Origin: a virus
DNA length: 42,644 nt
Strand: one strand, 5' to 3'
IMG/VR virus record: IMGVR_UViG_3300029586_000007
Span: 1 to 42,644 of that record
The translations under genes and the position numbers were made by a program. Under the pieces are notes generated by a model, which had not been told where the DNA came from, did no database searches, and worked only from the letters and a program-made list of their open reading frames with translations. Below are positions 4,142 to 36,317 of this stretch, one piece after another. Each line of letters begins with the position of its first letter. Position 1 is the stretch's first letter.

Positions 4142-4162
4142 TCGTTCAACCCTCCGCTTTCT

Positions 4163-4207
4163 GTGTGTTATTGGTGTGTTGCTTAGTGTGTTGATGGTGT
4201 GCTATCG
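4163..4207. repeat. Four further 11-bp iterons upstream of the HTH gene
   Basis: GTGTGTTATTG GTGTGTTGCTT (a) GTGTGTTGATG GTGTGCTATCG. Confidence 0.75.
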
Positions 4208-4312
4208 CTCATCATCATTGTTGCCGCCACGCAGCATTGCACACACAATAAGCAGCGCCATTTCTACGCCCAGTGTTGCCAGCACTCCGGCAACGAACGG
4301 GTGAATATACAT
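4202..4312 (-). CDS. 36-aa hydrophobic peptide
   Basis: MYIHPFVAGVLATLGVEMALLIVCAMLRGGNNDDER. GGAGGTG lies 6 nt before the ATG. Below the ORF-track length cutoff. Confidence 0.45.
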   Translation of the reverse strand: MYIHPFVAGVLATLGVEMALLIVCAMLRGGNNDDER

Positions 4313-4327
4313 CGGTTTCACCTCCGC

Positions 4328-4357
4328 TTGTTCGCCCCTTCCCGACCGTGGTATAAT
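4328..4357 (+). promoter_or_regulatory. Plus-strand promoter with extended -10 (TGGTATAAT)
   Basis: TTGTTC 4328..4333, 18-nt spacer, TGGTATAAT 4349..4357, directly upstream of 4380..4610. Confidence 0.6.
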
Positions 4358-4379
4358 AGCCGGGAAAGGAGGTGTTGAT

Positions 4380-4610
4380 ATGATGCACTTAGGTTCAGAG
4401 CTTCGCCGTATCGAGCAAGAAGCCGAATTGGAATTTCGTGAATCCATGTTGAAGCAGCTTGAAGATGAACGCCAGCAACGCGAAAAATCTGACGTAGAAG
4501 AACGCCGATTCGCGCTGAAATGGAATCGCATCAACCTTGCTGTTGCGATTTTCGCCGCGTTAGTCGGAACGGCCGGTCTTGTTCTCTCTCTTGTGTCTAT
4601 CCTCTCGTAA
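4380..4610 (+). CDS. Small C-tail-anchored membrane protein (charged helix plus one TM)
   Basis: AAAGGAGGTG RBS. Glu/Arg-rich N-terminal region, then NLAVAIFAALVGTAGLVLSLVSILS. Opposite in orientation to the surrounding operon. Confidence 0.75.
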   Translation: MMHLGSELRRIEQEAELEFRESMLKQLEDERQQREKSDVEERRFALKWNRINLAVAIFAALVGTAGLVLSLVSILS

Positions 4611-4694
4611 CAATGCGATCCGATAGACGATACTGCAACAACTCCAACCCAGTGCAAAACTGGATAGGCAAAGCGCTATAACTTTCAGCGCCAT
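4560..4694 (-). CDS. 44-aa hydrophobic/charged peptide (uncertain)
   Basis: MALKVIALCLSSFALGWSCCSIVYRIALLREDRHKRENKTGRSD. GGAGGTG lies 8 nt upstream. It overlaps the 3' end of 4380..4610 convergently. Confidence 0.3.
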   Translation of the reverse strand: MALKVIALCLSSFALGWSCCSIVYRIALLREDRHKRENKTGRSD

Positions 4695-4711
4695 GTCCTT
4701 CTCACCTCCGC

Positions 4712-4951
4712 TTATGCGCTCTCGTTGTCATTCTCCACGCCGAATGCCCCGTTGGTAATTTCATCGTCCGTGGCAAACAGGTAAGTGAACGGCTTCTTGA
4801 AATAGCGGCACAGTAGCTTGCATTCTTTCGGCGTAAACCGTCCGCTTTTCATTTTGGATTCATAGGCATTTCTGCTGATACCTAAGATATTACCCATATC
4901 ATCAGATGTCAGACCGTGAAACGCTTTCATGCCCATCAAATTCGGATACAT
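4712..4951 (-). CDS. Cro-like XRE-family HTH regulator
   Basis: LTSDDMGNILGISRNAYESKMKSGR HTH. Divergent from the CI-like gene. GGGAGGTG RBS. Confidence 0.85.
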   Translation of the reverse strand: MYPNLMGMKAFHGLTSDDMGNILGISRNAYESKMKSGRFTPKECKLLCRYFKKPFTYLFATDDEITNGAFGVENDNESA

Positions 4952-4974
4952 ATTTGCACCTCCCTTCTCATTTG

Positions 4975-5076
4975 TTGGCGCTCCGCCAACCTGTGATTAC
5001 AGTTTATCAGCAATGCGCCAACTTGTCAAGGGATTTTTCAAAAAATGTTGACAGAACGCCAACTTAGTGTTATGCT
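4975..5076. promoter_or_regulatory. Lysis-lysogeny switch: back-to-back promoters and repeated operators
   Basis: Minus: TTGACA (rc of 5024..5029)-17-TAAACT (rc of 5001..5006). Plus: TTGACA 5048..5053-17-TATGCT 5071..5076. CGCCAACYT at 4984, 5016 and 5057. Palindrome TTGGCGctcCGCCAA 4975..4989. Confidence 0.7.
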
Positions 5077-5097
5077 GTACTCATAGGAGGTGAGCAC

Positions 5098-5478
5098 ATG
5101 GAATTCTACGAAGAACTGAAAGCTGCTCGCATTAAGGCCGGTTTAACCCAGCAGCAAATAGCCGACGAAATAGGCATTACAAAGAGTACCTATTGTGGAT
5201 ACGAAACTGCAAAGCGAAACCCTGACCCGCAGAGAATCAAACAGCTTGCAAAGGTTCTTCACATCTCTGCCGATACCTTGTTAGATACCGGCATAGAAAA
5301 AGAAAAAGCCCCTGCCCCGGCCAAAGCCGAAACAGGGGAAATCACAAGAGAGATGTCTATTGAGTTGTTAAAGGCTCTCGGATTGCTCGACCAGTCCGGC
5401 AACCTTTCCGACGATGATCTCGCGTTTCTTGCGCACATCGTCGGATTGCTCGAATGGCGTTTCGGCGATCATTCGTAG
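5098..5478 (+). CDS. CI-like XRE-family repressor
   Basis: LTQQQIADEIGITKSTYCGYETAKRNP HTH with a C-terminal extension. AGGAGGTG RBS. Same strand as the integrase. Confidence 0.85.
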   Translation: MEFYEELKAARIKAGLTQQQIADEIGITKSTYCGYETAKRNPDPQRIKQLAKVLHISADTLLDTGIEKEKAPAPAKAETGEITREMSIELLKALGLLDQSGNLSDDDLAFLAHIVGLLEWRFGDHS

Positions 5479-5619
5479 CGCATTGTATATGCGCAGCGGG
5501 TTTGTGCATGAATTGAGCATTGCGGTAAAACGGTCGATGTTGTCCATGATGTTTGGTTCCTGCCTTTCCTGTTGTATACTCCTATGATATTACCTTAAAA
5601 TGGAAATATCAATAAGAAC

Positions 5620-5654
5620 CGTTCGCCTTTATCTGACATATAGTATAGCGAACG
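5620..5654. terminator. Possible bidirectional terminator between convergent genes
   Basis: CGTTCGC 5620..5626 pairs with GCGAACG 5648..5654. T-rich on both sides. The 21-nt loop is long, so this is a weak call. Confidence 0.4.
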
Positions 5655-5712
5655 TTTGTTCGATTTTCAAGAGGACGCGAACAGCCTTGTTGAAAAGTCC
5701 AATAAACAGGAC

Positions 5713-5982
5713 TTATTGCTTCTCTGGAGAGATTCCAGCCTCGCGCAGTTTCTTCGTCAAGAACTGCGCGACGGCTTTCGAAAGGTCACTAAAACCGGCT
5801 GCATCAAAGCCGACAAAGTATCCGTTGTTCTCTGCATTGGTCAAAGCTGTTTCAGCAAGGCGGATAGCCTTGCCTCGCTGGTGCTTAGTAAGCGGCAACG
5901 TGTTGATATAGTGATATAGGGCTTCAACGCTCTTGATCGTCGTTTCATCGCGTTTGACGCAAAGTCCGTTTCCGTATTCCAT
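5713..5982 (-). CDS. Hypothetical protein
   Basis: 89-aa ORF immediately downstream of the antirepressor gene. Confidence 0.7.
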   Translation of the reverse strand: MEYGNGLCVKRDETTIKSVEALYHYINTLPLTKHQRGKAIRLAETALTNAENNGYFVGFDAAGFSDLSKAVAQFLTKKLREAGISPEKQ

Positions 5983-5988
5983 CGGTGA

Positions 5989-6714
5989 TTAGCTCCTTTC
6001 GCCCAGCAGTTTTGAAATGAAATACTGCTGACCCTTGCCGGTTACTTTCGGCGTTTTGTTTACGCTGATATGGCCGTCTGCATGGGTGACGCTGGTTTCC
6101 TTGACCTCAAACAAGCCTAACTCCATGCTTCGCTGTGTCGGCATATTGTAATCGGTGCCCTGACGGCGTACAAGATAGCCGTTCTCACGCATCCACGCAA
6201 ACAGGCGCTTGCCGCCCATGTCAACGCCGTTCTGCTTGATGATCTTTGCAAGATCGAAAATTAGAATAGAAGTCTTGGCCGTGGCTACGCTGTCCGCGAA
6301 AAGAACCTTGGGTGCGTCTTGCTCGATCTTCTCCGAAAGCGTGTGGATTCGCTTGTTGGCAATCTGCAAGGCGCGTGCCATTACCTTTTCCGGGCTGTTC
6401 CAGTCGCGTTCAAGCTGTAAGAAATACTGGCGTGCCTGCTTGCCCTTGTCGTTGCGCTGGAGCATGCAAAGCTCCTTTGCCATATCAATAGTAATAGCAG
6501 CGTCGTCTACAGTACGTCGTACTTCACGGTTTCCCTCGTATTGAAGGCGGTCAAATTTGACCGGGTTGAAATCACGCCCTTGCTCAAAACCGTATTCACA
6601 CATACGAGGAAACCAATGGCGAAAATCTGCGCCGACTTCGAGAAAGTCGTGCATCTCGCGGGCGGATACGGTTGGTTGTTCGTTATCGTAGTTTACAGTA
6701 ATGATTTCGTTCAT
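5989..6714 (-). CDS. Phage antirepressor (AntA/KilAC-type)
   Basis: N-terminal SAREMHDFLEV..DFRHWF and C-terminal LFADSVA...ILI.DLAK....GV.MG..RLF.WMR..GYL blocks are typical of Ant/KilAC antirepressors. Confidence 0.85.
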   Translation of the reverse strand: MNEIITVNYDNEQPTVSAREMHDFLEVGADFRHWFPRMCEYGFEQGRDFNPVKFDRLQYEGNREVRRTVDDAAITIDMAKELCMLQRNDKGKQARQYFLQLERDWNSPEKVMARALQIANKRIHTLSEKIEQDAPKVLFADSVATAKTSILIFDLAKIIKQNGVDMGGKRLFAWMRENGYLVRRQGTDYNMPTQRSMELGLFEVKETSVTHADGHISVNKTPKVTGKGQQYFISKLLGERS

Positions 6715-6828
6715 GTATATACCTCACTTTCCGTAATGGGAAAGGAGTGGCGGGAGCATCCCCCGCCATGCGTTACTCCAATGCTATCCCCGTTTCGGGA
6801 AAAGCTGCTTTGCTGTAGCTACGGGTAT

Positions 6829-6857
6829 AGTTTAACCAGCGTAACACAAAATGTAAA
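6829..6857 (-). promoter_or_regulatory. Candidate antirepressor promoter
   Basis: TTTACA (rc of 6852..6857)-17-TAAACT (rc of 6829..6834). It predicts a structured 5' UTR of about 105 nt. Confidence 0.45.
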
Positions 6858-7068
6858 TTGACAAAATAACGAGGGCAAAAAGCAGAAAAACGTAATTTGC
6901 AAACTTTTTCAGAAAAACATTGTTTTTTCATTGATATATAACGTCACTGAATGGCAACGCATGCCGAAAAAATGCCGCTATATGTCCCACAAAGCCAATC
7001 TTCATACAATCTAAAAAAGTGCATAAAACAATTTTTAAGAAGTCGAAAATAAAAGGGAAGGTGAAATT

Positions 7069-7701
7069 ATGTTTTGCACGAATTGTGGCACGGAATTCGA
7101 GGGAAATTTTTGCCCGAACTGCGGAACAAAGGCTGGTGAACAACTACCTGCACAAACCGTTGCCCCAAAGGAAACGCACGAGTATTACGATAAAGAGGGC
7201 GATTTAATCGACCTCTCCACGATCTACGGCGTTTACAAGGACAGAACCGGCATGTCTGCATTCTTCCGCAAATGCACCGATTACGATTCTGTCACTATCG
7301 GTAAAGCGTTAGACTATATCGAGGATAACGTAAAGCCGAAGGAATACGGCATGCTGGATGCAATCCGCATGAAGCGTCAGATTGAAGCACCGATTGAGAA
7401 GATCATAAAAGTGCAAGCAGTGAACGACCCTTCGGTTAAATTGCAAAAGGCGCAGCTTTCCGAACTGAAAAAGGCGAACAAACTACAGCAAAAAGAAATG
7501 AACGCACAAGCGCGTTGTCCGCGTTGCGGCTCCACTTCCCTTTCTGCGCATAAGAAGGGATTCGGCATCGGCAAGGCCGTGGTAGGCGCAGCCGTGACCG
7601 CGCCGCTGGGGCTGGGATTGATCGGTGCCGTAGCCGGAAACAAGGGCGCGAAAAAAGTCCGCGTCACTTGTTTGAAATGTGGAAAACAATTTTGGGCATA
7701 A
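7069..7701 (+). CDS. Double zinc-ribbon protein with Gly-zipper membrane segment
   Basis: FCTNCG..FCPNCG at the N-terminus. RCPRCGS...GKAVVGAAVTAPLGLGLIGAVAG...VTCLKCG at the C-terminus. Preceded by an AT-rich region. Confidence 0.8.
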   Translation: MFCTNCGTEFEGNFCPNCGTKAGEQLPAQTVAPKETHEYYDKEGDLIDLSTIYGVYKDRTGMSAFFRKCTDYDSVTIGKALDYIEDNVKPKEYGMLDAIRMKRQIEAPIEKIIKVQAVNDPSVKLQKAQLSELKKANKLQQKEMNAQARCPRCGSTSLSAHKKGFGIGKAVVGAAVTAPLGLGLIGAVAGNKGAKKVRVTCLKCGKQFWA

Positions 7702-7803: not shown

Positions 7804-8982
7804 ATGCCACGTCGAAAAAAAGACCCTCGCGGCTTTGTCCGTGAGACCGGAACGTATATGGGAAAGCACTACGACCTGAGAGCAAAAACCGAAAAGGAAC
7901 TCAACGAGAAAATCAGGGCAAAACGCGCAGAGATCGAATCCGGAAGTAAACTCATTGAAGCCGGTGTTACCGTAAAGGAATGGGGAAAACGCTGGGTAGA
8001 AACCTACAAGTCCGGCGTGAAGGAATCCACGCGCAGGCTGATTGAGGGACGGCTTGTGAACTACGTCTATCCCTACATTGGGGATATCCCCGTTAGCAAA
8101 GTGCGGCCGCTGAACTGTCAGGAAGCGCTTAACTCTGCGGAAGGACGTGCGCCGGACACCGTAAAGAAGGTGCAGCAGGCAATCGAGCAGATGTTCCGTG
8201 CAGCCAAGCAGAACGGCTTGTGCGTCAATAATCCTGCGGAAGATTTGAAGATGCCCCGTACTGGCAAGCAGAAGAGCCACAGGAGCATTACAGATCGAGA
8301 ACGTGTTATTTTACTGGAAACTGCAAAGACGCATCCTGCGGGAACGTGGGTGCTTACTCTGCTGTATAGTGGCTTGCGTCCGGCGGAAAGCCTTGTGCTG
8401 ACATACGCCGATATTACAGGCGGTATGATTACTGTTGACAAGGCATACGACCGGGACACCCGCGCCGAGAAATACCCCAAGTCAGACGCAGGCGTTCGCA
8501 AAATCCCGATTATCCCCCAGCTTGCCGCAGTCCTGCCGAAAGACGGTTCGTTCGGTGAATTGGTTTTTCCGCGTAACGGGCACTTGTACGATGATAAGTC
8601 CATGCGTGCCATGTGGCAGGGTTTCCGCGCCGCTATGGATGATACCGAGCGCGAGTTGATCGCGGCGGGGAAAATTTCACCCATTGCCGAGCAGCTGCCT
8701 CCTATCGTTCCCTACGATCTGCGCCACACGTTCTGCACAGATTTAGAGCGTGCGGGCGTACCGCTCAACGTCGCAAGCAAACTCATGGGACACGCATCTA
8801 TCGAGATCACCGCCAAGATTTACACGCACACCGGCGAGGATATGATCGAACGTGCAGGCGAGCAATTAGCCGCCTTGCTCAGTCCCACATTTAGTCCCAT
8901 TAACGAAGTGCAAAAAACGCCTATGGCTGACATTATGCGAGAGCTGCAAGAACTTCGTGCAGCAGTGCTCAAAGCCGTATAA
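7804..8982 (+). CDS. int: Tyrosine integrase
   Basis: C-terminal catalytic block LRHTFCTDLERAGVPLNVASKLMGHASIEITAKIYTH. AGGAGG RBS. Adjacent to the att core. Confidence 0.95.
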   Translation: MPRRKKDPRGFVRETGTYMGKHYDLRAKTEKELNEKIRAKRAEIESGSKLIEAGVTVKEWGKRWVETYKSGVKESTRRLIEGRLVNYVYPYIGDIPVSKVRPLNCQEALNSAEGRAPDTVKKVQQAIEQMFRAAKQNGLCVNNPAEDLKMPRTGKQKSHRSITDRERVILLETAKTHPAGTWVLTLLYSGLRPAESLVLTYADITGGMITVDKAYDRDTRAEKYPKSDAGVRKIPIIPQLAAVLPKDGSFGELVFPRNGHLYDDKSMRAMWQGFRAAMDDTERELIAAGKISPIAEQLPPIVPYDLRHTFCTDLERAGVPLNVASKLMGHASIEITAKIYTHTGEDMIERAGEQLAALLSPTFSPINEVQKTPMADIMRELQELRAAVLKAV

Positions 8983-9039: not shown

Positions 9040-9094
9040 TGGAGCTGCTAACCAGATTTGAACTGGTGACCTCATCCTTACCAAGGACGAGGTG
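9040..9094 (-). other. attP core: 3' ~55 nt of a tRNA-Thr(GGU) gene
   Basis: The reverse complement reads CGTCC-TTGGTAA-GGATG (anticodon arm, GGT), AGGTC, ACCAG-TTCAAAT-CTGGT (T arm), TAGCAGC-T-CCA. No D arm or 5' acceptor strand is present upstream. Confidence 0.75.
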
Positions 9095-9142
9095 AAATTT
9101 TGAAACCCCACAGTATGTCTGAACTTTTGACACTTCAAAAAT

Positions 9143-9201
9143 TTTAGTCCCATGTTTAGTCCCACTTGACCTATACATTGTACCACAGATAGCGTGGGAC
9201 T
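9143..9201. repeat. Putative arm-type integrase sites (TTTAGTCCCA)
   Basis: TTTAGTCCCA at 9143..9152 and 9155..9164. Inverted TGGGACT at 9195..9201. Further copies on the other side of the core, inside the int 3' end (AGTCCCA 8881..8887, TTTAGTCCCA 8890..8899). Confidence 0.55.
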
Positions 9202-9211
9202 TCAATACCGC

Positions 9212-9238
9212 AAAAAGGGAGGGCATTTGCCCTCCCTT
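9212..9238 (-). terminator. Intrinsic terminator ending the late/accessory operon
   Basis: Minus strand: AAGGGAGGGC-AAAU-GCCCUCCCUU followed by UUU. It lies immediately after the stop at 9242. Confidence 0.8.
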
Positions 9239-9241
9239 CGT

Positions 9242-9628
9242 TCAATGCTTCACAACATACCGATAATATGCTGTTTCCTTATTCTTCACTGCGTCCTTGT
9301 CTTCGAGCCAGAACGCACAAGCAGCGTCAACATAGTAATCAATGTTGCGGATGCCGTGCTTCTCGTTGACCTTGCAAAAGTCGGAGTAAACAGCGTTCAT
9401 TGCTACCCAAAATTCTACCGGGTCGCAATTCATGTTGTGCTGCTGCATTACCTGCTTGCACTGTTCAAACGTCCAGTGCGGGCCAGTCGTGCCGTCAGCG
9501 TTCTGCATGTTGTGCAGCCATTCGTCCGCCATGTCCTTAGTCATACGTCCGGTGTGCGTACTGGAAGCATAGCCCATAGTGCGCTCAGAACCGTGCGTCT
9601 TGTCACCTACATAAGAAGTATCCCCCAT
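9242..9628 (-). CDS. Hypothetical protein (accessory cassette)
   Basis: Start set at ATG 9628, 14 nt after the upstream stop, with no clear SD. The track ORF runs to 9751 but overlaps the preceding gene. Confidence 0.6.
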   Translation of the reverse strand: MGDTSYVGDKTHGSERTMGYASSTHTGRMTKDMADEWLHNMQNADGTTGPHWTFEQCKQVMQQHNMNCDPVEFWVAMNAVYSDFCKVNEKHGIRNIDYYVDAACAFWLEDKDAVKNKETAYYRYVVKH

Positions 9629-9641
9629 GTAAGCATCATCG

Positions 9642-10034
9642 TCACGAAAGCCAATAGGGCGCGGTGCCGTTAATAGACCGCAGCGCGTCAGAATGAGAGC
9701 AGCAGGAATTACCGAGCATTCGGAAACTGCCGCCGCTGGACGAAGTGACAACGCGACACAGGTATTTGTGACGGGTGTCCAGATTAAACACTGTCGCCTG
9801 TGCGCCGTTGCATTTCAGCAGAGGATACGTTACCGTTCCGTCGCCGATTGTGATTACTACCGGTGCGCCGATGATCGTTGTGCTCGGAATGTTCTGAGCG
9901 ATTACGATTCCGTATACGCATCCGTTCTGATAATCTCCCGCCGGAATGTTCACCGTCAGCACGCCGCTTGCGTAAGTCACGCCCTGTGAGATACGCAGGT
10001 TCGGACACAGTTTTTGTACGGGCTTGCAAGCCAT
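9642..10034 (-). CDS. Hypothetical beta-rich protein with terminal Cys clusters
   Basis: AGGAGG 8 nt before ATG 10034. N-terminus MACKPVQKLC. NSCCSHSD near the C-terminus. Confidence 0.75.
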   Translation of the reverse strand: MACKPVQKLCPNLRISQGVTYASGVLTVNIPAGDYQNGCVYGIVIAQNIPSTTIIGAPVVITIGDGTVTYPLLKCNGAQATVFNLDTRHKYLCRVVTSSSGGSFRMLGNSCCSHSDALRSINGTAPYWLS

Positions 10035-10087
10035 AATCAAAACCTCCTATCAAAGCCGGGGGAATGTCCCCCGGCTGAACGTATCTC

Positions 10088-10903
10088 TCACATGCCGCAG
10101 CAGGTGTTGCAGCCACAGCCGGAAAACTGGTAAGGTGCCGGAACCGGGAACGCCGGAACGGGAGCCGGGCGCAGAGCGTTTACCAGATAATTGTTCTGTG
10201 CTTCCTGAGAAGCAGCGAACTTGAGGGTCTGGTTCTCCGTCTGGAGCGCCGCGATCTTCTCTGCCTGACGCGCAGTTTCCATCTGGTCAATCCGCGCAAT
10301 GATACGGTCGGTATCACTGTGCGTAGACTGGATGATATCACGCGCATTAGTAGCAGCGTTGTAATTGGTGTCGCAGAAACCTCGTTCTACCTGACGCTGC
10401 GTATCGCAGCAGCAGCTTGCCATCTGCGTACCGAGTGCGGTCAGACCCGCAGTCACGCCGTTAAAGCCGTTGTTCATGTTGGTGTTTACGCCGTTGATAA
10501 GCTGGGCGTTCTGATAGCCGAGCTGGCAAACCGAATTGTCCACGCCGTGGAAGCCGTTAGAAACCGCGCTGCCGAGCGTGTTGAAGCCGGTCAGCATCCC
10601 GTTGTTCATACTGTAAAAGCCGTTGCACAATCCGTCCTGAATGCCGAGAACGGAACGGGACAGGTTGTTGAAGTTGAACTCACTGCACAGATCGGAGCGA
10701 GTAACCGCGCCCTGATACCCTGCGCCGTTCGCACCGTTGCCGCCGTTGTTGCCCCAGCCCCAGCCGTTGCCGCCGAAAATCAGTGCAATAATCAGAAATG
10801 CGAAAATCCACGAGCCATCGCCGCCCCACATACCGGAGCCGTTGTTGCTACCGTTGTTGTCCTGACCCAGTGCATAGCCCAGAGCCATCGAATCGTCACT
10901 CAT
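10088..10903 (-). CDS. Gly/Asn-rich single-pass membrane protein with coiled coil and Cys-rich tail
   Basis: AAGGAG RBS before ATG 10903. GNNGSGMWGGDG-WIFAFLIIALIFGG-NGWGWGNNGG, repeated NGF motifs, CCC, IAALQTENQTLK coiled coil. Ends GCGCNTCCGM. Confidence 0.75.
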   Translation of the reverse strand: MSDDSMALGYALGQDNNGSNNGSGMWGGDGSWIFAFLIIALIFGGNGWGWGNNGGNGANGAGYQGAVTRSDLCSEFNFNNLSRSVLGIQDGLCNGFYSMNNGMLTGFNTLGSAVSNGFHGVDNSVCQLGYQNAQLINGVNTNMNNGFNGVTAGLTALGTQMASCCCDTQRQVERGFCDTNYNAATNARDIIQSTHSDTDRIIARIDQMETARQAEKIAALQTENQTLKFAASQEAQNNYLVNALRPAPVPAFPVPAPYQFSGCGCNTCCGM

Positions 10904-11043
10904 AGTGTAATTCTCCTTTTCAGTTATATTTGATCGGAACCGTACGCTTTCCGAACATGACAAATTCACGTCGGATTTTCATCAAGATTCCGTAACTGAA
11001 AATGGAACCGTAAAAAATCGTCTGTTTTTTTACAGTTTCGTAT

Positions 11044-11265
11044 TTACTTGATCTTCATGCCGAACTGCTGTGCAAACTGATCAAGGTCAATCCCTCGCTC
11101 CTTTGCAATGTTCATCGCCATCTGCCGCAGTGCATCCGGACTTTTCCCCTGTATACTCTGCATAAGCTGATTCACCATCGGGGTGTTGCCTGTCATCTGC
11201 TGCAAAAGCACCGTCGGGTTTCCGCCGTGCTGCATCAGCTGCATCAGCTGAATTATGCTCATCAT
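11044..11265 (-). CDS. Met/Gln-rich small protein
   Basis: ATGA coupling at 11262..11265. MMSIIQLMQLMQHGGNPTVLLQQMTGNTPMVNQLMQSIQGKSP... Confidence 0.7.
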   Translation of the reverse strand: MMSIIQLMQLMQHGGNPTVLLQQMTGNTPMVNQLMQSIQGKSPDALRQMAMNIAKERGIDLDQFAQQFGMKIK

Positions 11266-11654
11266 GCCTCGTTCCCTCCCAGCTTGTCGCATAAGGTGTT
11301 GAACCGTGCTTTCAGCTCGTCAAACTCACTTCTCGGAACGAACTTTGACAAATCCGTTTCCGAGGGTTTATTTGTTTCCTGCATCTGCACCCGGCTGTAT
11401 GCCACGAAATCCGCGCAGCCGGTTTGAAGGCTGAGCTGCTTTGTGTAGATATAGCCGTGCGCCGTGTCCGGCATGATAGTAAGCGCACCGGAAAAGTCCG
11501 TCTGTACCGCGCGTGCTTCCTCCACGCTTGCCACAGGTCGAACAATATGCTGTGGAGATTGCACCTGCTGTTGCATTGGTGTCTGCATTGGCTGTTGCGG
11601 GTACTGCTGTTGATACTGCGGCGTGTAGCCAGTGTAACCATAAGGATATGCCAT
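11262..11654 (-). CDS. Protein with Gln/Tyr/Pro-rich N-terminal low-complexity region
   Basis: MAYPYGYTGYTPQYQQQYPQQPMQTPMQQQVQSPQ followed by a globular domain. TAATG coupling with the upstream small ORF. Confidence 0.75.
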   Translation of the reverse strand: MAYPYGYTGYTPQYQQQYPQQPMQTPMQQQVQSPQHIVRPVASVEEARAVQTDFSGALTIMPDTAHGYIYTKQLSLQTGCADFVAYSRVQMQETNKPSETDLSKFVPRSEFDELKARFNTLCDKLGGNEA

Positions 11655-11824
11655 TAACCCAGCACCTCCGTAACGTGTTCGCTGATGGATTTACTTACCG
11701 CCTCTTTGTAGGATATATACTCCTCCAAACAATCTGTGTTGCCTGCGTTGCGGTAAACTGCTACAATGCGACGAGCGCACTCAGGGTCATACCCCATGCG
11801 TTCAAGTCTCTGTTCGTAACTCAT
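11654..11824 (-). CDS. 56-aa hypothetical protein (below ORF-track cutoff)
   Basis: Hand translation MSYEQRLERMGYDPECARRIVAVYRNAGNTDCLEEYISYKEAVSKSISEHVTEVLG. AAGGAAG lies 7 nt upstream. The stop overlaps the next start. Confidence 0.6.
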   Translation of the reverse strand: MSYEQRLERMGYDPECARRIVAVYRNAGNTDCLEEYISYKEAVSKSISEHVTEVLG

Positions 11825-11898
11825 GCGATCACTTCCTTATACTTTCAGTATAAGGTCTGCCGGGCGTGACAACCTGTCACAAATCTGTCAATTTTCCG

Positions 11899-12099
11899 TC
11901 ACAGCACGCGCAGCATTTTGCATTTGATGCTGTTCAACCGACGATGCACCGTGCTTTCGCTCATGTGCAGCGTCATGCAAATTTGAGTAATAGAACGCGC
12001 CGATGTTCGCAGATCAAACACGGCGCGTTCTTCTGGTGTAAAATTGCACTCACGCCGGAAGTATTCCACCTCCGGCCTTGTAAATTCCGTTAATTTCAT
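11899..12099 (-). CDS. Sigma-70 region-4-like HTH regulator (66 aa)
   Basis: ERAVFDLRTSARSITQICMTLHMSESTVHRRLNSIKCKM. ATG 12099 with GAGGGG 7 nt upstream; the track ORF runs to 12198. Confidence 0.7.
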   Translation of the reverse strand: MKLTEFTRPEVEYFRRECNFTPEERAVFDLRTSARSITQICMTLHMSESTVHRRLNSIKCKMLRVL

Positions 12100-12146
12100 G
12101 CGGTATCCCCTCGTTATGGTGTCACCGCATATCTTTCCCCTTGTAT

Positions 12147-12185
12147 AAAAAAATCGGGTGCGACACACTTTCGCGCTTCGCACCC
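12147..12185 (-). terminator. Strong intrinsic terminator in the leader of the sigma-r4-like gene
   Basis: Minus strand: GGGUGCGAAGCGC-GAAA-GUGUGUCGCACCC, then GA and seven U. The G.U pairs form only in the minus-strand reading. Confidence 0.8.
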
Positions 12186-12286
12186 TATAAAAACACACCG
12201 TCCCACGTCCTCTACGTCTATACCCTATGTAGGTTCATAAGGCTTCGGGGAGCGCAGGAACAATGCGTTTTTTCAATTCTGATAGG

Positions 12287-12315
12287 ATTATACCATCTTT
12301 TGTGTTCGTCCGCAA
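12287..12315 (-). promoter_or_regulatory. Promoter with extended -10 (TGGTATAAT), directly after the endolysin stop
   Basis: TTGCGG (rc of 12310..12315)-17-TATAAT (rc of 12287..12292) with TG at 12294..12295. Confidence 0.6.
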
Positions 12316-12316
12316 C

Positions 12317-13054
12317 TTAGCCGTAAAGGTGCGCACGGTCGTTTATAACCAGCAGGCGCAGCAGGTCGGTCGTCAGTGCCAGCTTGCCCTGATCGTCACC
12401 GTGCAGAAAGCCCTTGTTCACCAGCTTCTGCACGGTCGCCTTGCCCCATTCAGGTACTGCGTCTACCGTGTTATATACCTTCTTGGCGTTCTCAGCGTTT
12501 GCAATCTCCTGCTTTGCGATTGCGCGGGTCTGTGATTCCGTCATGTCTTCAACCTCTTTCTCTGTCAGCATGGTTTTGAATTTCTGCCACAACTGTGGAT
12601 TGCGTACCCACGGTTCCGGGCACTGCTTGTGCGTCACATCGTAGTGACGGCACACGCGCGATGCCGGAATATGGTACTTTGCCATCAACTCACGGGTCAG
12701 CTTTGCGGCGCGCTTCATGGTCTCCTCGGGGATAACGTACACCCCGTTTCGGATAACGCTGCACATTTCAATGCCAATGGAATTAGCGTTCCGGCAGTCG
12801 TTGTAGTAGCTGCCGCCGCGTTCCCTGCCGCAATGCCATGCCGTGTCACCGTCTTTTACGCTCTGCACGATTCTTTCCGTGTCCACAAAATAATGTGCGC
12901 TTGCGTTCAAACCGCCCTCACGCGCGAAATAATCCGCGTTATTCTGTGCCGTATCGCCGTTGTTGGACGTAAAGTGCAGGCAAATCCAGTGAATCGGAAA
13001 CTCTCTGCCTTTACGGTAATTACTCGGATTGCACGCTTTGAACGGAATGCTCAT
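12317..13054 (-). CDS. Endolysin: N-acetylmuramoyl-L-alanine amidase (Amidase_2/PGRP type) with C-terminal binding domain
   Basis: IHWICLHFTSN...ASAHYFVD...AWHCG...NSIGIEMC. ATGA overlap with the holin stop at 13051..13054. The N-terminal track extension to 13204 is rejected. Confidence 0.9.
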   Translation of the reverse strand: MSIPFKACNPSNYRKGREFPIHWICLHFTSNNGDTAQNNADYFAREGGLNASAHYFVDTERIVQSVKDGDTAWHCGRERGGSYYNDCRNANSIGIEMCSVIRNGVYVIPEETMKRAAKLTRELMAKYHIPASRVCRHYDVTHKQCPEPWVRNPQLWQKFKTMLTEKEVEDMTESQTRAIAKQEIANAENAKKVYNTVDAVPEWGKATVQKLVNKGFLHGDDQGKLALTTDLLRLLVINDRAHLYG

Positions 13055-13509
13055 TCTTCCTCGTCTCCAATCTTGTCTACTGCGTCCTTTGCTGCCGCAA
13101 GTGCCTTTTTCAGCCATGGCGGACACGGCGCACCAAGCGCAACTGCGTTCTCCACGATAGAGCCAAGCTCGGTCAACGTGTACCATACGACCACCAGCGG
13201 ACAAAGCAGCACCGTGTATTCAAACGGCAGTGTCACGCCCGGCAGATGGTCTACGACCATGCCAATCAGCAAGTCCGCGCCGCCTGCGACCGCAACGACC
13301 ACAATAGAGCCGACCTTGTGAAAGATACCGTCTCTCGCTTCCTTGCTCGACCAGTTGCCTTTCTGCATTGCCGCCGCCGTGCCGGTCAGATAGTCCGCCG
13401 CCATCGCTGCCACAAACAGCACAACAAGCCAGCCGAACCACCCCCACAGGGCGGTAAGGACGGCAACGCAAGCGGTAACAGCCGCCTTAAAATTGTTTAC
13501 ATTATCCAT
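13051..13509 (-). CDS. Holin (LL-H/TcdE-like family)
   Basis: Hydrophobic segments with DYLTG...KG..SSK....G...K motifs and a charged C-terminus. Directly upstream of the amidase. Confidence 0.85.
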   Translation of the reverse strand: MDNVNNFKAAVTACVAVLTALWGWFGWLVVLFVAAMAADYLTGTAAAMQKGNWSSKEARDGIFHKVGSIVVVAVAGGADLLIGMVVDHLPGVTLPFEYTVLLCPLVVVWYTLTELGSIVENAVALGAPCPPWLKKALAAAKDAVDKIGDEEE

Positions 13510-13536
13510 ACACTTATCTCTCTTTCTGTGCTCTTT

Positions 13537-13734
13537 TTATTCTGCCGTGCCGCCGAACTCCGCGGGCACAAGCTCCGGCATACCGCATTCGTCAATCAGG
13601 ATTGCCGCAACCTGCTTTTTCAGCTTCGCGGGCACGTCCTTGAATGCGCATTTACCGATAATCACGCGATTTGCAAATAACATTGCCATCATAAGTACCA
13701 TCCTTTCGAAATAGGTCTTGATTTTGTTAAGCAT
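13537..13734 (-). CDS. Small phage protein (XkdX/CD1375-like position)
   Basis: ATG 13734 overlaps the upstream stop by 8 nt. Lies between the tail-fibre genes and the holin. Confidence 0.6.
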   Translation of the reverse strand: MLNKIKTYFERMVLMMAMLFANRVIIGKCAFKDVPAKLKKQVAAILIDECGMPELVPAEFGGTAE

Positions 13735-14128
13735 AAACAACCGCCGCCATTTCGGCGATACAGTCCTCGTAAAAACTCTGCTGGTCAGCAAGGGCGGAAA
13801 CCTGCGCTTTCAGCAGCTTATTTTCCTGCTCCAGTTCTGCGTTGCTTTTCGGAATAACCGGCTTCGGCAGCTTCGCCTTATCCGCCTCGATTTCCTCGGC
13901 GGTGCGCTCTACCACCTTGCCGTCTACGAGCTTATAACGCAGAATCGCGCCGTCGTAGAGCGGCTTATCGAGATAATGGCTCTGCGCGAGCGCGTACTTG
14001 TCTCCAAAGCCTTCATCAATTTTCATCCATCCGGTAAGATCTGCCGGGAGGGAATACTCTCCTTCGAGCCGCAAAACACGGCTTTCACTGTCCAGAAGGA
14101 CGTAAACACGGGATTTAGGGGTTTGCAT
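13727..14128 (-). CDS. Hypothetical tail-fibre-associated protein
   Basis: 133-aa ORF after the tail fibre. C-terminal coiled coil NAELEQENKLLKAQVSALADQ. Confidence 0.7.
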   Translation of the reverse strand: MQTPKSRVYVLLDSESRVLRLEGEYSLPADLTGWMKIDEGFGDKYALAQSHYLDKPLYDGAILRYKLVDGKVVERTAEEIEADKAKLPKPVIPKSNAELEQENKLLKAQVSALADQQSFYEDCIAEMAAVVYA

Positions 14129-14140
14129 AGTGTCACCTCC

Positions 14141-15340
14141 TTATAGGTCGGCGGAAATAAAGGCATATCCAGCGGGTGCGTTATCAGAACGCTGCAAGAA
14201 ACAGTAATAGCCTTGATCAGTTGCGTTAAAAGACACGAGAATAGATGCTTTTGTCCTGCCAATGTCTAAAAGTGATATAGCTGTTACAGAAAATGCAGTA
14301 GTTCCACCAGAAATAGATCGTGCGATAATTCGATAGTTACTTACATCGTTAAAATTGATTGCTGGTACTGTACGTTTCCTTGCATAAGGGAGAATGAATA
14401 CTGCACTTGTAGCACCAGAAGGAACAAACGTAGAGTTTGTGATTGTGGGTGTATCTGCACTCTCAACCTTCTCTGCATAGTACGTGCACCTCCTCAGCTG
14501 CTCCCCGAAATCAGGGATTTCGTTCAGCACCCAAACGCCGTTTTCCTTGTGCGCAAGGGTCTGCGTGTCGCCCAGTTCGAGCTTGATGGCTTTGATCTTA
14601 ACGTTATCGACAAGTGAGTTTATTTCACACTGAGTTTGCGAGTTCGAAAGTTTCTGAATATAGAAGCCAAGTTCAGACGAAAAGAAAGTTTGTGCTTGAT
14701 TTACAGAACCGTTGTACACGAATGAGCCTGTTCGCAAAGTGCCATCTGACAGCAAAACCGAACCGGTAAGGGTCATGCCGATAAACTGGTCGAAATCAGC
14801 AAAATACTCCCCCCAGTATGTGCCGGATTTTTTCAGGCAGATACAGCCATCTTCGAGAGTTACAGCTCCACCAACGTCGAGCTTCCACCTATCTATCGTA
14901 TAACCAGCCACGCAGTAGCCGGGAACTTGCACAGATTTACCGACAATATAATTTGTACCGTTCACAGCGATGAGAGGGTCTTGTCCGATGTATCCGATAA
15001 CCGGATAAGCCTTGTCGGTTGTTCCGACTTCTGTCCACGAAAGAGTGTTGTATTTTACACCCGCCGGAATATAGTACCCATTCCTCTGGTTCACCGGTCT
15101 GCCGAAGTACCAGTTATCGAGCAGGTTCGGGTTGACACCGCCGCCGGACGTTGTGGGAATTTTCGTCAACGCCTCAGAAATCAATGTCGAATCCTCAGCG
15201 CTAACCGGAATGGTATCGCCTCGGATTTCGAGTTTTTTTCGCAGTTCAGCGGGCGTAGACGCACCGGAGATAATCTGCGCCGCTCTCACCGCAGCGTCGA
15301 TTTCTTCACCGCTAAACTGCGATGTGTAAGCATCAGGCAT
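14141..15340 (-). CDS. Tail fibre / receptor-binding protein
   Basis: Start at ATG 15340 (TAATG overlap with the upstream stop). The track's Arg-rich N-terminal extension to 15652 is an out-of-frame reading of the Gly-rich region. KLELGDTQTLAH motif. Confidence 0.8.
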   Translation of the reverse strand: MPDAYTSQFSGEEIDAAVRAAQIISGASTPAELRKKLEIRGDTIPVSAEDSTLISEALTKIPTTSGGGVNPNLLDNWYFGRPVNQRNGYYIPAGVKYNTLSWTEVGTTDKAYPVIGYIGQDPLIAVNGTNYIVGKSVQVPGYCVAGYTIDRWKLDVGGAVTLEDGCICLKKSGTYWGEYFADFDQFIGMTLTGSVLLSDGTLRTGSFVYNGSVNQAQTFFSSELGFYIQKLSNSQTQCEINSLVDNVKIKAIKLELGDTQTLAHKENGVWVLNEIPDFGEQLRRCTYYAEKVESADTPTITNSTFVPSGATSAVFILPYARKRTVPAINFNDVSNYRIIARSISGGTTAFSVTAISLLDIGRTKASILVSFNATDQGYYCFLQRSDNAPAGYAFISADL

Positions 15341-17493
15341 TATACAACCACCTTTCGTGTGAATTTCTCGTTGAAGCCCTTGCCATCGCGGGTGATAAGC
15401 CGTCCGGTAGAGCTTGCGCGGTATACGCGGTAGTAGATGAGGACACAGCCGGGCGCACCGTCGCCGCCGTTGGAGCCGTTGCCGCCCTCTCCGCCGGAAT
15501 GGCTCCACGTGTCTACAGCTTGCGTCAATCCGCCGCCGCCTCCGCCACCGCCTCCGTGACCGCCTCCGCCACCGCAGCCAAGCATGGTCGGCATGTTCGG
15601 AATGATAGTTGCGTTGCCGCCAGAGCCGCCCGCGCCACCTTTTGCAAGCCATCCGTAACCTTGATGCTCAGGCGTGTCGAAATTCGTCCATTCCAAGCGT
15701 CCGGCATTGCCATCTCCTCCCGCGTTGCCCATAGCGGCACCGCCACCGCCGCCACCGCCAGAAACGCCAATCTGACCGCCTGAGCTGCTGCCGCTTTTTT
15801 TAGTCGCGAGGCCACTTGCACCCTTGCCACCTGCGTAGCCGAGGACGTTTCCTCCGTCTTTGCCTGCACGAACCTTGTTATCATTGCTTGTATAGTTTGC
15901 TTCGCCGCCGCTGCCGCCATCTCCGCCCTTGATGCCGTCGTCTCCGACTTGAGCGTAAAACTGCTTGTTGACCGGGTCTGCAAAACCAATATCGGAAGAT
16001 GAGCCGTTTTCAGAGGATAGCGAGCCGAACTTTGTTTGCACGCCAGACGTACCGGCCACGCTGCCGTCTGCGGAATATACGCCGCCTTTGCCGCCTGCAC
16101 CAATTTGCACTGCGTAATCCGTTCCGGGCGTAACATTCATTTCAACGCTGTAAACCTTTCCACCCGCGCCGCCTGCGCCTGCTATGCCGCCTTTGCCGCC
16201 TGCGCCGCCGTTGTACACGTTCTTGCCATCTTCGCCCTCACATCCGCTCGAACCGCCAGACCCTCCCCCAATCAGCACTGCACGAATACTCGTCACATTT
16301 TCCGGCACCGTCCAAGTGCCGCTCTGTGTCAACACCTCCACAGTGTCGTAATATTCCTGCGCGCCAATGTCCGGTGGGAAATAATCAATCAGCACACTTT
16401 CCTCTGCCGCAAGTTTACCGGATACCGTAATATCCACACTTTCAATGCAGCCGGAGACTGTGCCACCGTAAGGATGTGCAATTTTCACTACATCACCGGG
16501 GATTTCGCGTTTGGTTGCAATTTTGTAATTGATACGTTCATTGTGGCTGTAATACTCGGCAAGGCGTTCTGCGACCGCTGTTGCGTTGACAAGTGATACG
16601 AGCGTCGCATTCTCTACCTTTACCGTGTTATCTGATTGTGTAACAAGCTCGCGTGTTTTCGGTTTAATCTGCTGCATTACCTGCCGGGTAACGTGCGTAT
16701 ACTTTTTACCCGTCAGCACGCCAGAGCCTGCCGAAACCGTTGCCCAGTTTGCACCGCTTGCAAGAACGGAAAAGCCAGATGCCGTGAGGTCGTAGCACGG
16801 TTCGTCGAAGGTGATTTTGTCGTCTGCCGACGTTGTACCCTTGAAAAGCTCCACCGTTTCCGTTGCGCTCTGCGAATAGGCGTGTTCGGTTACGATTACC
16901 TCGGTAACAGGCGTTGCGTAATCAACCGTACCGCTTGCGTAGATTTCGCCTGCGTCGATTGCGCTTGCCTCGCCGCTCCATAGACCTTCAATGCGAATTG
17001 CACCGTCAAAGTCAACCTTCAACGTAGCACCAATCGCAAAAAGCACCTGCGTGAGATTTTCACGCCGCGTCGCGATAGGAAGCCAGCCGTAAAGCTTAAT
17101 ATTTGCAATATTTGTTTTGACGTAAACCGTCAGCGGAGAGCAAATGTCCTCGCACACTTTTTTCACGGTTTCGCCTGTGTAAATACCGCCGTCGTGGTAT
17201 GTCTCATCAAGCAAACCTACGGTCGAAGTGCAGGCGAAATGATATGTGTTGATAGCCGTTCGGCTGACCTTCTGCACATAGTAGATTCCCATTTGTTCAT
17301 CATTATGGAAATACGTCAATGGTGTGTTGCGGATAAATTCGGTTAATGTGGTGTCTTCACTGTATACATCGAAACTAAAAGTATCAATTTCCTGTGATGC
17401 AGCAATCGGGGAACGTGCTTGATACACATTCCCCGACTTTACATCTGTTGCCGTGAACACCTTATCCAGATAAAGAATTTTATTTGTTCCCAT
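15340..17493 (-). CDS. Tail-tip/host-specificity protein with C-terminal glycine-rich domain
   Basis: 717 aa, downstream of the TMP and Dit-like genes. The last ~290 aa are GG/GS-rich (GGAGGKGG..., GGGGGHGGGGGGGGG) and end GAPGCVLIYY. Confidence 0.85.
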   Translation of the reverse strand: MGTNKILYLDKVFTATDVKSGNVYQARSPIAASQEIDTFSFDVYSEDTTLTEFIRNTPLTYFHNDEQMGIYYVQKVSRTAINTYHFACTSTVGLLDETYHDGGIYTGETVKKVCEDICSPLTVYVKTNIANIKLYGWLPIATRRENLTQVLFAIGATLKVDFDGAIRIEGLWSGEASAIDAGEIYASGTVDYATPVTEVIVTEHAYSQSATETVELFKGTTSADDKITFDEPCYDLTASGFSVLASGANWATVSAGSGVLTGKKYTHVTRQVMQQIKPKTRELVTQSDNTVKVENATLVSLVNATAVAERLAEYYSHNERINYKIATKREIPGDVVKIAHPYGGTVSGCIESVDITVSGKLAAEESVLIDYFPPDIGAQEYYDTVEVLTQSGTWTVPENVTSIRAVLIGGGSGGSSGCEGEDGKNVYNGGAGGKGGIAGAGGAGGKVYSVEMNVTPGTDYAVQIGAGGKGGVYSADGSVAGTSGVQTKFGSLSSENGSSSDIGFADPVNKQFYAQVGDDGIKGGDGGSGGEANYTSNDNKVRAGKDGGNVLGYAGGKGASGLATKKSGSSSGGQIGVSGGGGGGGAAMGNAGGDGNAGRLEWTNFDTPEHQGYGWLAKGGAGGSGGNATIIPNMPTMLGCGGGGGHGGGGGGGGGLTQAVDTWSHSGGEGGNGSNGGDGAPGCVLIYYRVYRASSTGRLITRDGKGFNEKFTRKVVV

Positions 17494-36265: not shown

Positions 36266-36317
36266 TTCATTCCTCTCTTTCCAACATATCAAGATACTTT
36301 CTCGCCATCGCCGCCAC

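Follow-up and report, generated by a model that had tools for sequence, protein, structure and literature searches.

Which function is served by the run of small genes that separates the lysis genes from the attachment site attP in the phage of IMG/VR record IMGVR_UViG_3300029586_000007? The window, meaning the whole stretch of 42,644 nucleotides (nt) that was analysed, carries this gene set at positions 9,242 to 12,315. A preliminary description had taken it for a moron or lysogenic-conversion cassette of this phage, in which a terminator-gated regulator precedes six open reading frames (ORFs) of unusual composition. We are confident that the region is a member of a large, undescribed and mobile phage cassette that has its own regulator and is not tied to lysogeny. 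As to what the cassette does, we tentatively favour a membrane-associated role around the time of lysis, and this reading is weighed against its rivals below.

Gene order, distribution and placement

The cassette genes of the window all lie on the minus strand, like the late genes, and are listed here from the 5' end.

11899..12099, minus strand: sig66, a standalone helix-turn-helix (HTH) protein of 66 residues, of the sigma-70 region 4 (r4) / LuxR-GerE type by family profile
11654..11824, minus strand: p56, a small helical protein
11262..11654, minus strand: p130Q, a member of phrog_21718 with a P/Q/Y-rich N-terminus, a small conserved domain and a short coiled coil
11044..11265, minus strand: p73, a Met/Gln-rich protein of 73 residues, coupled translationally to p130Q
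10088..10903, minus strand: p271, the core protein, a member of phrog_16490, of single-pass membrane type with a Cys-rich coiled coil
9642..10034, minus strand: p130C, an eight-strand beta-sandwich in its AlphaFold2 model, with Cys-rich termini; the last five codons are changed by a deletion
9658..9662, minus strand: deletion junction with microhomology GCGCC, from the alignment with locus L101; the end of p130C is fused to the middle of the DUF7841 gene
9242..9628, minus strand: p128, a 5'-truncated DUF7841 gene (Pfam PF25223, 109.8 bits versus 25.2, E 1.2e-31)

Gene order was surveyed in 99 partly redundant loci, with iterative hidden Markov models (HMMs) run over all their ORFs. The order is fixed: an HTH gene of the sig66 family (found 5' of the cassette in 48 loci) is followed by p56 (only 10), p130Q (87), p73 (67), p271 (99), two variable positions termed slot 1 and slot 2, and sometimes a HExxH gene. 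Slot 1 holds p130C in 52 loci or a BclA_C-like protein of about 140 residues in 42; slot 2 holds the DUF7841 protein in 38 loci or the R/Y/G-rich helical protein phrog_28802 in 40, and the alternatives of the two slots also combine in mixed pairs. The HExxH gene, present in 17 loci, codes for a mini peptidase of about 105 residues with weak matches to M78, SprT and DUF6782.

The p271 family is large. There are 3,531 relatives among 90%-identity clusters. The clusters at 50% identity that a profile search gives number at least 2,748, of which 1,473 have E<=1e-10; their proteins are uniformly 200-340 residues long. A profile scan with one genome per species found 80 loci, mostly in Clostridia and some in Bacilli and Negativicutes; the clostridial carriers include Oscillospiraceae, Lachnospiraceae, Acutalibacteraceae, Christensenellales and Anaerotruncus colihominis DSM 17241. 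Among deposited phages, a protein search retrieved 24 metagenomic records and no named cultured isolate, and a DNA similarity search gave no match. No paper describing the cassette or DUF7841 was found in the literature searched. With a colinear cassette in about 100 fetched loci, the idea of an idiosyncratic moron private to this phage was not borne out.

The cassette behaves like an independent unit whose preferred place is the distal end of the late operon. In 7 of 10 diverse loci its immediate upstream neighbour is an endolysin gene, and the endolysins belong to six unrelated families (NlpC/P60, Amidase_2, GH25, C39+SLH, ELLD+PG_binding and CHAP). An endolysin is also directly upstream in the window and in loci L001, L007, L096 and L099-101, and a holin in L092. 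Other placements occur as well. Dulem virus 36, whose complete circular genome lacks an annotated integrase or repressor, has the cassette behind the gene for the receptor-binding protein (RBP), 17 kb from the holin and lysin genes. The cassette lies in the head module in L032 and also in Dulem virus 35, a temperate phage with a free slot after the endolysin gene. Replication modules of the NrdD/dUTPase type adjoin it in several carriers. In the crAss-like phage cr116_1 (L090, MT774389; Steigviridae), an HTH gene and a clear p271 homologue come after a holin and an L,D-carboxypeptidase (3870-7137). A tyrosine integrase was found inside the fetched flank of only five loci. Because of this varied placement and the few integrases nearby, lysogenic conversion is unsupported as a general function, and the moron reading, set against the crAss-like copy and Dulem virus 36, did not hold as a general one.

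In cr116_1 the HTH protein is annotated as a small terminase/excisionase and the p271 homologue as a 'spike protein/glycoprotein'. The same locus codes for a Cys-containing protein of 136 residues, a protein of 168 residues with a beta-domain and a coiled coil, and two small HExxH proteins. A p73-like segment fused to the p271 homologue of this phage was suspected by eye, went undetected by the p73 HMM and was dropped.

Some carriers are stop-codon-recoded (L004-L006, L010 and L055). The L004 copy (p271 homologue at 8001-8843) has in-frame TGA at conserved Trp positions, and the L055 copy (about 7990-8700) has five in-frame TAG codons where homologues mostly have Gln. A flotillin-like Band_7/Flot gene lies on the opposite strand a few kb from the cassette in L004 (13704-15155) and L094 (9733-11223); no integrase was found in the fetched flanks of these two loci. 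In L007, the closest relative of the window, the cassette is followed by a protein of 466 residues and a Peptidase_M23 protein of >2,191 residues (10044-16807), and not by att and integrase. The identities between L007 and the window are mosaic: 100% for the HTH protein and p56, 98% for p130C, 87% for p271, 77% for p73 and 55% for DUF7841.

The window copy is damaged. About 312 nt are missing relative to L101 and L099, from the last p130C codons to about codon 100 of the DUF7841 gene. p128 lacks the native start and the R/Y-rich N-terminal stretch of about 100 residues, and its relatives have 227-233 residues (227 in P0391 and P0392); the protein of 128 residues formerly listed as a gene in its own right is the remnant of a 227-residue DUF7841 gene. 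Further decayed copies are found in L100, where p271 is split in two ORFs, and in the chimera P0091, which joins p271(1-127) to DUF7841.

The surroundings of the cassette in the window are as follows.

13537-13791, minus strand: CD1375-like small protein (PF23792, 27.8 bits), just 5' of the holin gene
13051-13509, minus strand: holin, PF05105 (Phage_holin_4_1), upstream of the cassette
12317-13204, minus strand: endolysin, Amidase_2, directly 5' of the cassette
9212-9236, minus strand: terminal intrinsic terminator GGGAGGGCaaatGCCCTCCC + TTTTT, read from the sequence and kept in L099 and L101
about 9040-9175, minus strand: attP region, the 3' end of a tRNA-like gene, outside the cassette
7804-8982, plus strand: tyrosine integrase, downstream of the cassette and on the opposite strand

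The cassette of this phage does lie between the end of the late operon, with the endolysin upstream, and attP and the integrase downstream, as the preliminary description had it and as expected of a moron. The ORFs, hairpins and palindromes that it listed are likewise present in the sequence. Homology between the window and its integrated relative L099 stops exactly after CTCCA, the end of the core ...GCAGCTCCA, and in L099 bacterial genes begin immediately past this core end, right after the cassette; the window is therefore the attP form. The attP core (9040-9205, minus strand) consists of the 3' terminal part of a tRNA-like gene (...GGTCACCAGTTCAAATCTGGTTAGCAGCTCCA), whose long stem resembles a variable arm. 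The Rfam tRNA model matches it with 22.5 bits over 9049-9175, and ARAGORN called no tRNA within 9040-9205. An extended -10 promoter-like site, TTGAAG-17-TGgTACAAT (9205-9177), is directed into this core. The host named by exact protein matches is Agathobaculum butyriciproducens or Butyricicoccus, which we take to be monoderm. Other accessory genes of the window code for a LemA-family protein (35711-36394, minus strand), a radical-SAM/DUF5131 protein (39448-40170, minus strand) and a zinc-ribbon/LITAF-like protein (7069-7701, plus strand), the last adjoining the integrase.

Regulator, promoter-like motifs and insulating hairpins

Taken alone, sig66 is below all Pfam gathering scores (Sigma70_r4_2, 18.7 versus 25.7; GerE, 16.7 versus 23.5; HTH_AraC, 19.9 versus 26.6), and its r4-type match spans residues 20-62 only, approximately. 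A profile of 27 cassette HTH proteins was compared with solved structures; the best match is GerE (1fse, E 4.7e-10), followed by other LuxR-type regulators and, more weakly, by sigma4 of SigF, SigK, SigW and FliA. Of the 27 HTH homologues, 10 match Sigma70_r4_2, 7 Sigma70_r4 and 7 GerE at E<=1e-3, and the homologue in L096 carries precomputed PF08281/PF04545 matches. At the family level sig66 is, judging by these profiles, a member of the sigma-70 r4 / LuxR-GerE clan, and the earlier assignment as a sigma-r4-like HTH is supported at that level. A sigma factor proper was rejected: the protein has 66 residues, no region 2 and only the r4-type HTH. In PADLOC the cassette matches nothing except, weakly and through the HTH of sig66, the CARF3 regulator models.

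The non-coding features of the cassette are the following.

12287..12315, minus strand: promoter-like site TTGCGG-17 nt-TGgTATAAT, overlapping the endolysin stop codon
12189..12272, minus strand: long imperfect leader hairpin with a sub-threshold Rfam DUF3800-VIII match (fold z = -5.0)
12147..12185, minus strand: intrinsic terminator hairpin GGGTGCGA...TCGCACCC + T run, 5' of the HTH gene
11866..11880, minus strand: inverted repeat GTGACAggtTGTCAC, about 13 nt 5' of the -10-like element TATACT; candidate operator
11835..11855, minus strand: palindrome CCTTATACTgaaAGTATAAGG, its left arm with the -10-like TATACT and its right arm overlapping the Shine-Dalgarno sequence of p56
10904..11043, minus strand: intergenic gap p73-p271, with a weak hairpin and T run, TACGGTTCC copies and a TATAACTGAAA motif
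12287-12315, 11843-11852 and 10918-10928, minus strand: putative promoter-like motifs
10054..10076, minus strand: GC-rich hairpin directly 3' of the p271 stop codon

Insulating hairpins are seen well beyond this phage. Of 78 distinct loci, 41 have a terminator-like hairpin and T run in the 260 nt 5' of the first structural gene, compared with 45 of 294 random windows (15%). The usual arrangement is the HTH gene, an inverted repeat or terminator, and a -10-like element; the hairpin typically stands between the HTH gene and p130Q and has a -10-like hexamer close behind it. In L011, L012, L021, L023 and L028 the hairpin is about 15-170 nt 5' of the p130Q start, with a constant loop (TTGATA/TTGAAA) and stems that co-vary; TATAAT, TATACT or TATATT follows within about 10 nt downstream. 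These hairpins, to judge from their sequences, may double as the operator or -35 region of a cassette promoter.

In the window the HTH gene itself has a structured leader. The promoter-like site at 12287-12315 has a perfect extended -10 and a -35 matched at only 3 of 6 positions, and because of this weak -35 it is absent from a consensus promoter scan. It is conserved in close relatives, with a TGa variant in L099; what had been called the cassette's own promoter is present as a promoter-like site of this kind. The leader (12100-12285, 186 nt) has a fold of -67.4 kcal/mol (z = -5.0 versus shuffled controls) and consists of two successive terminator-like hairpins, the long one and then the canonical terminator. 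L007 differs from the window by two pair-preserving substitutions in the long hairpin. The DUF3800-VIII match (12197-12263, minus strand) has 32.9 bits versus a gathering score of 40.2 (E 0.0024) and is below threshold. In the window a terminator follows this stretch, an arrangement reported for some DUF3800 motifs (PMC5737381). A scan of ten larger accessory ORFs in the window, a check that is not exhaustive, gave no DUF3800 match, and nhmmer found no leader RNA outside the close relatives.

The terminator at 12147-12185 is real but confined to the lineage of the window (the window, L007-9 and L099-101), and a terminator gate 5' of the HTH gene was rejected as a general cassette feature. The terminator-gated regulator is, from this distribution of the hairpins, a local variant of the general theme of an insulated unit. 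Self-contained regulation stands in so far as the HTH gene, the promoter-like motifs and the terminal terminator are present; the promoter activity is putative.

Between the HTH gene and p56, the GTGACAggtTGTCAC repeat forms an array of half-sites together with TGACAG (11885-11890); at the equivalent position other lineages have an inverted repeat that doubles as a terminator. The second palindrome, CCTTATACTgaaAGTATAAGG, does overlap the Shine-Dalgarno sequence of p56 as first described, and it is preserved in L034 by a compensatory change (ATAC/GTAT to ATGC/GCAT). Because this palindrome pairs the -10-like element with the p56 Shine-Dalgarno sequence, read-through transcripts would be expected to hide the latter and transcripts from the cassette promoter would not. 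The -10-like element is part of the motif TATA(N)CTGAAA, which has only two copies in the 42.6 kb of the window (0.11 expected), located 14-18 nt 5' of the p56 and p271 start codons. It is seen again 5' of p130Q in an unrelated lineage.

In the p73-p271 gap, the second TATAACTGAAA promoter-like motif (10918-10928) stands ahead of the p271 Shine-Dalgarno sequence. The motif said to recur three times in this gap, TACGGTTCC (that is, GGAACCGTA), has two exact copies, at 10936-10944 and 11004-11012, and no others in the window, but the third is degenerate and the first exact copy sits within a 34-nt indel missing from L007. A three-fold GGAACCGTA repeat as a conserved operator is weakened by this indel. 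The GC hairpin ahead of the p130C gene at 10034 was confirmed (about 10055-10075), and a strong hairpin occupies the same position in 53 of 83 distinct loci. Its place directly after p271 suggests that p271 and the upstream genes would be made in excess over the slot proteins.

Features of the cassette proteins

Scans of all seven proteins against Pfam, NCBIfam, PHROGs and PADLOC gave only DUF7841, two PHROGs of unknown function and the weak HTH matches. Their source names are 'hypothetical protein' throughout, with the addition of 'phage I-like protein' for p130Q. That the ORFs have no recognisable phage function thus still holds; the proteins nonetheless belong to phage families (phrog_16490, phrog_21718 and DUF7841). 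The unusual compositions were recovered: Q 16% and M 14% in p73; G 14%, N 12% and 11 Cys in p271; and 7 Cys in p130C.

The core protein p271 begins with an acidic N-terminal tail, followed by a highly conserved hydrophobic segment flanked by Gly and Trp, a G/N/W-rich linker and Cys-bearing helical repeats of the type NGFHGVDNAVCxLGYQ. Its C-terminal half has an invariant CCC and then ERGF, a helix or coiled coil of about 70 residues, a Pro-rich motif PxPVPAYxVPNPY and a GCGC..CGC tail. Conservation is highest in the hydrophobic segment and the CCC motif. On average the 30 residues before the segment contain 0.5 K+R and 3.5 D+E, and the 30 residues after it 1.3 K+R; because of this charge bias an N-out/C-in topology, with the large helical part in the cytoplasm, is weakly favoured. 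The AlphaFold2 model is a helical one of low confidence (predicted local distance difference test score, pLDDT, 48) and was not used for Foldseek. The family has no Pfam domain and no informative name, no domain fusions were seen among its best 150 representatives, and profile searches of p271 and p130C against PDB sequences gave nothing significant.

The p130C protein has a confident AlphaFold2 model (pLDDT 77). Foldseek gave nothing at E<=1e-3 against PDB. Against BFVD it found uncharacterised phage homologues and, with E between 1e-4 and 1e-3, tip domains from tail fibres, from RBPs and from collagen-like phage proteins. A further BFVD match is to the N-terminal part of a crAss-like DUF7841 protein, in which a p130C-like fold is fused to DUF7841; the two slot proteins are therefore linked. 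p130C is the best-conserved member of the cassette, with a median identity of 53% versus 37% for p271, and a higher value than p271 in 42 of 43 loci.

The alternative slot-1 protein resembles BclA_C. The protein of 136 residues in L002 matches Pfam BclA_C (PF18573) with E 4.4e-7, below the gathering score (30.3 versus 38), and the profile of this slot-1 family matches BclA structures marginally (E 0.026-0.25). p130C itself was rejected as a BclA_C protein, with no Pfam match and an hhalign probability of about 1% against the BclA_C-like cassette proteins. Homology between the slot alternatives (p130C and BclA_C-like; DUF7841 and phrog_28802) was likewise rejected by hhalign. Slot-2 proteins are R/Y-rich.

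The conserved domain of p130Q has the pattern V..S.EEA...D..G....D....IY.K...G. p130Q has no Pfam relatives, its profile search against PDB sequences gave nothing significant, and no relative with an established function was found for p130Q or p73. Start and stop codons overlap between p56 and p130Q (TAATG) and between p130Q and p73 (ATGA; median gap over the loci -4 nt), and in no other pair. Translational coupling of six ORFs, as first proposed, therefore holds for p56, p130Q and p73, but not for p271 and p130C, which are preceded by gaps of 140 nt and of 53 nt with the hairpin. No signal-peptide-like N-terminus was seen by eye in any p271 partner, no predictor having been run.

Possible roles of the cassette and its relation to known systems

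The reading that we put first, at less than an even chance, is that of an operon under separate control, whose products would form a stalk and knob anchored in the membrane and act around lysis. The region would then be one copy, slightly decayed, of an accessory operon that is widespread among gut phages, moves horizontally, is insulated from late and lysis transcription and is probably switched on by its own GerE/sigma-r4-type HTH protein. Its expression would be separate from that of the late genes and probably later. The main product, p271, would be abundant and form an oligomeric stalk on the cytoplasmic membrane, on which the partners without signal peptides would assemble: p130Q would dock possibly through the conserved Pro-rich motif of p271, p73 would join the stalk too, p130C would form a knob held possibly by metal or thiol links between Cys-rich tails, and the R/Y-rich DUF7841 protein would also be part of the structure. 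The assembly would act at the membrane near lysis, in egress or envelope handling, and not as a lysogen phenotype. Conservation, gene order, genomic position, the hairpins and the protein features are seen directly. The timing, the physical assembly and the lysis-linked role we infer from the recurrence of the cassette behind unrelated endolysins in different phyla, from the insulating hairpins, from the conserved membrane segment of p271 and from partners that lack signal peptides.

Several points weigh against this reading. No cassette protein has a characterised homologue, and the role is deduced from position and composition. In Dulem virus 36 the holin and lysin genes are elsewhere, and in Dulem virus 35 and L032 the cassette lies among head genes; its adjacency to lysis genes may therefore reflect only the late-operon end, a general hot spot for accessory genes. 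The topology call for p271 is weak and its model poor (pLDDT 48). The promoter-like site of the window is upstream of two terminators, and the HTH protein could equally be a repressor. From the decayed prophage copies (the deletion in the window, the split p271 and the chimera P0091), the cassette is dispensable for prophage maintenance.

Known lysis functions were also considered. The cassette is not the phage's own lysis system, a separate holin and endolysin being present. p271 has no holin match in Pfam or PHROGs, and the phage already has its PF05105 holin. The membrane segment and coiled coil of p271 resemble an i-spanin layout; no sequence match to spanins was found, and the charge bias weakly favours the opposite topology. 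No lipobox was seen by eye at the N-terminus of any cassette protein, and with an Agathobaculum/Butyricicoccus host a two-component spanin is not supported. p271 shares with the i-spanin Rz and with XhlA/BhlA-type proteins, which are single-pass coiled-coil products of lysis cassettes in Gram-positive phages, an N-terminal membrane segment, a Cys-bearing coiled coil and the holin/endolysin neighbourhood. It differs from them in having no sequence relationship, a much larger size (270 residues), Cys-bearing helical repeats, a Cys-rich tail and a bulk that the charge bias would place in the cytoplasm, and the cassette in having no lipoprotein partner, mostly monoderm hosts and its own regulator.

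Possible but doubtful is a moron-type protection of the envelope, in which a p271 complex expressed in the prophage and late in infection blocks DNA entry or masks receptors and so excludes superinfecting phages; this comes near to the lysogenic-conversion idea of the preliminary description. Here the cassette is the last unit before attP or attR; it ends in a terminator, has a regulator of its own and a promoter-like site, and codes for a membrane protein as its main product. It moves among unrelated phages and positions, p271 diverges fast (median identity 37%), and the position after the RBP gene in some phages recalls exclusion genes such as T5 llp. However, exclusion is exerted in the known cases by one small protein, not by a conserved unit of 5-7 genes with partners that look cytoplasmic. 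Copies in a crAss-like phage and in a genome without annotated integrase or repressor, the few loci with an integrase nearby and the decay of prophage copies also argue against exclusion, as does the lack of PADLOC or annotated PHROG matches.

The comparison with morons at the distal end of late operons (HK97 gp15, lambda bor/lom) runs along similar lines. Like these, the cassette is an extra unit after the late and lysis genes near att, with a promoter-like site, its own terminator and a membrane protein as main product. Unlike them, it is a conserved operon of 5-7 genes with an HTH gene, occurs at other genome positions and has among its carriers a crAss-like phage and a genome without annotated integrase or repressor. 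Anti-CRISPR and other anti-defence loci with Aca-type HTH genes occupy the same positions (the post-endolysin end of prophages or between head genes), are mobile and have a small HTH gene. The cassette differs in its larger proteins, which include a membrane protein, in a fixed order across thousands of phages and in having no matches to known anti-defence or defence families.

An accessory virion appendage is unlikely. In it p271 would be the stalk and p130C or the BclA_C-like protein the knob of a dispensable fibre or decoration, with p130Q, p73, DUF7841 and the HExxH protein as assembly or maturation helpers. The p130C model is like the C-terminal tips of tail fibres, RBPs and collagen-like phage proteins, the sister cassettes have the BclA_C-like knob, the cassette stands directly after tail-fibre/RBP genes or among head genes in several phages, and its genes share the strand of the late genes. 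Against it stands the strongly hydrophobic, highly conserved membrane-type segment of p271, and a dedicated regulator and insulating terminators are unusual for structural genes. Moreover, by their UniProt labels the BFVD homologues come from Myoviridae, Podoviridae and Siphoviridae, that is, from all three tail morphotypes, and the cassette has no constant place in the genome; stalk and knob are made as two polypeptides, in which no fibre-type repeats were detectable. Split stalk-and-knob appendages such as tail fibres with tips and the phi29 head fibre share with the cassette a coiled coil and a small beta-sandwich like those of fibre and RBP tips, whereas the stalk of the cassette is membrane-anchored, its stalk and knob genes are split by a hairpin and its regulation is independent of virion genes.

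The coat-like analogy of the preliminary description corresponds to a self-assembling cross-linked layer, similar to a coat or exosporium, which would form on a membrane template under a GerE-like regulator and armour the infected cell, released membranes or particles. The Cys-, Gly/Asn- and Gln-rich compositions, the R/Y-rich slot-2 proteins, the BclA_C-like protein in slot 1 of 42 of the 99 loci and the GerE structural match of the regulator family are in line with it; p130C is highly conserved with variable Cys-rich tails, as in a self-assembling subunit, and the GC hairpin after p271 may set the stoichiometry. Like the Bacillus GerE regulon of coat and exosporium proteins (GerE, BclA, CotY/ExsY, CotC/U), the cassette has a standalone GerE-type HTH of about 70 residues, small Cys-, Tyr-, Gly- and Gln-rich proteins and, in sister cassettes, a knob like the BclA C-terminus. 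In contrast to that regulon it is phage-borne, has no homology beyond the generic HTH fold and is anchored by a membrane protein without coat counterpart, and the expected hosts of its crAss-like carrier do not sporulate, Crassvirales infecting non-sporulating Bacteroidales. Such a layer is very unlikely, since the proteins of the window have no homology to coat, exosporium or Ena families (GerQ, CotJ, DUF3992 and others; none in Pfam and NCBIfam at E<=1, and no coat or Ena entry among 50 listed Foldseek PDB matches), a copy is in a crAss-like phage, and disulfide cross-linking would be doubtful in strict anaerobes.

In a broad sense the cassette is an accessory operon at a known hot spot, and its components and architecture match no characterised system. 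Its scale is considerable: gut metagenomes contain thousands of clusters of the p271 family, which has no Pfam entry and no name, and the carriers include phages of Oscillospiraceae, Lachnospiraceae, Christensenellales, Bacilli and Negativicutes, a crAss-like phage and stop-codon-recoded phages. A module of several proteins that is conserved, has its own regulation and stands at the lysis end of phage genomes points to a step of the late cycle outside current models, the candidates being egress, envelope handling, exclusion and a protective structure. The defined gene set, with its conserved order, alternative slots, candidate regulator and promoter-like motifs, can be put to use in a cultivable host genus (Agathobaculum/Butyricicoccus). 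It is quite unlikely, though conceivable, that many gut phages, of Bacillota as well as Bacteroidota, share a regulator-driven programme, run after the late genes, that builds a membrane-anchored stalk, a knob and a low-complexity matrix cross-linked through Cys or metal. By analogy, such a structure would be a counterpart of the spore coat or exosporium that arose independently in evolution, and, if this is true, it would be a new kind of phage-made cellular or extracellular structure.

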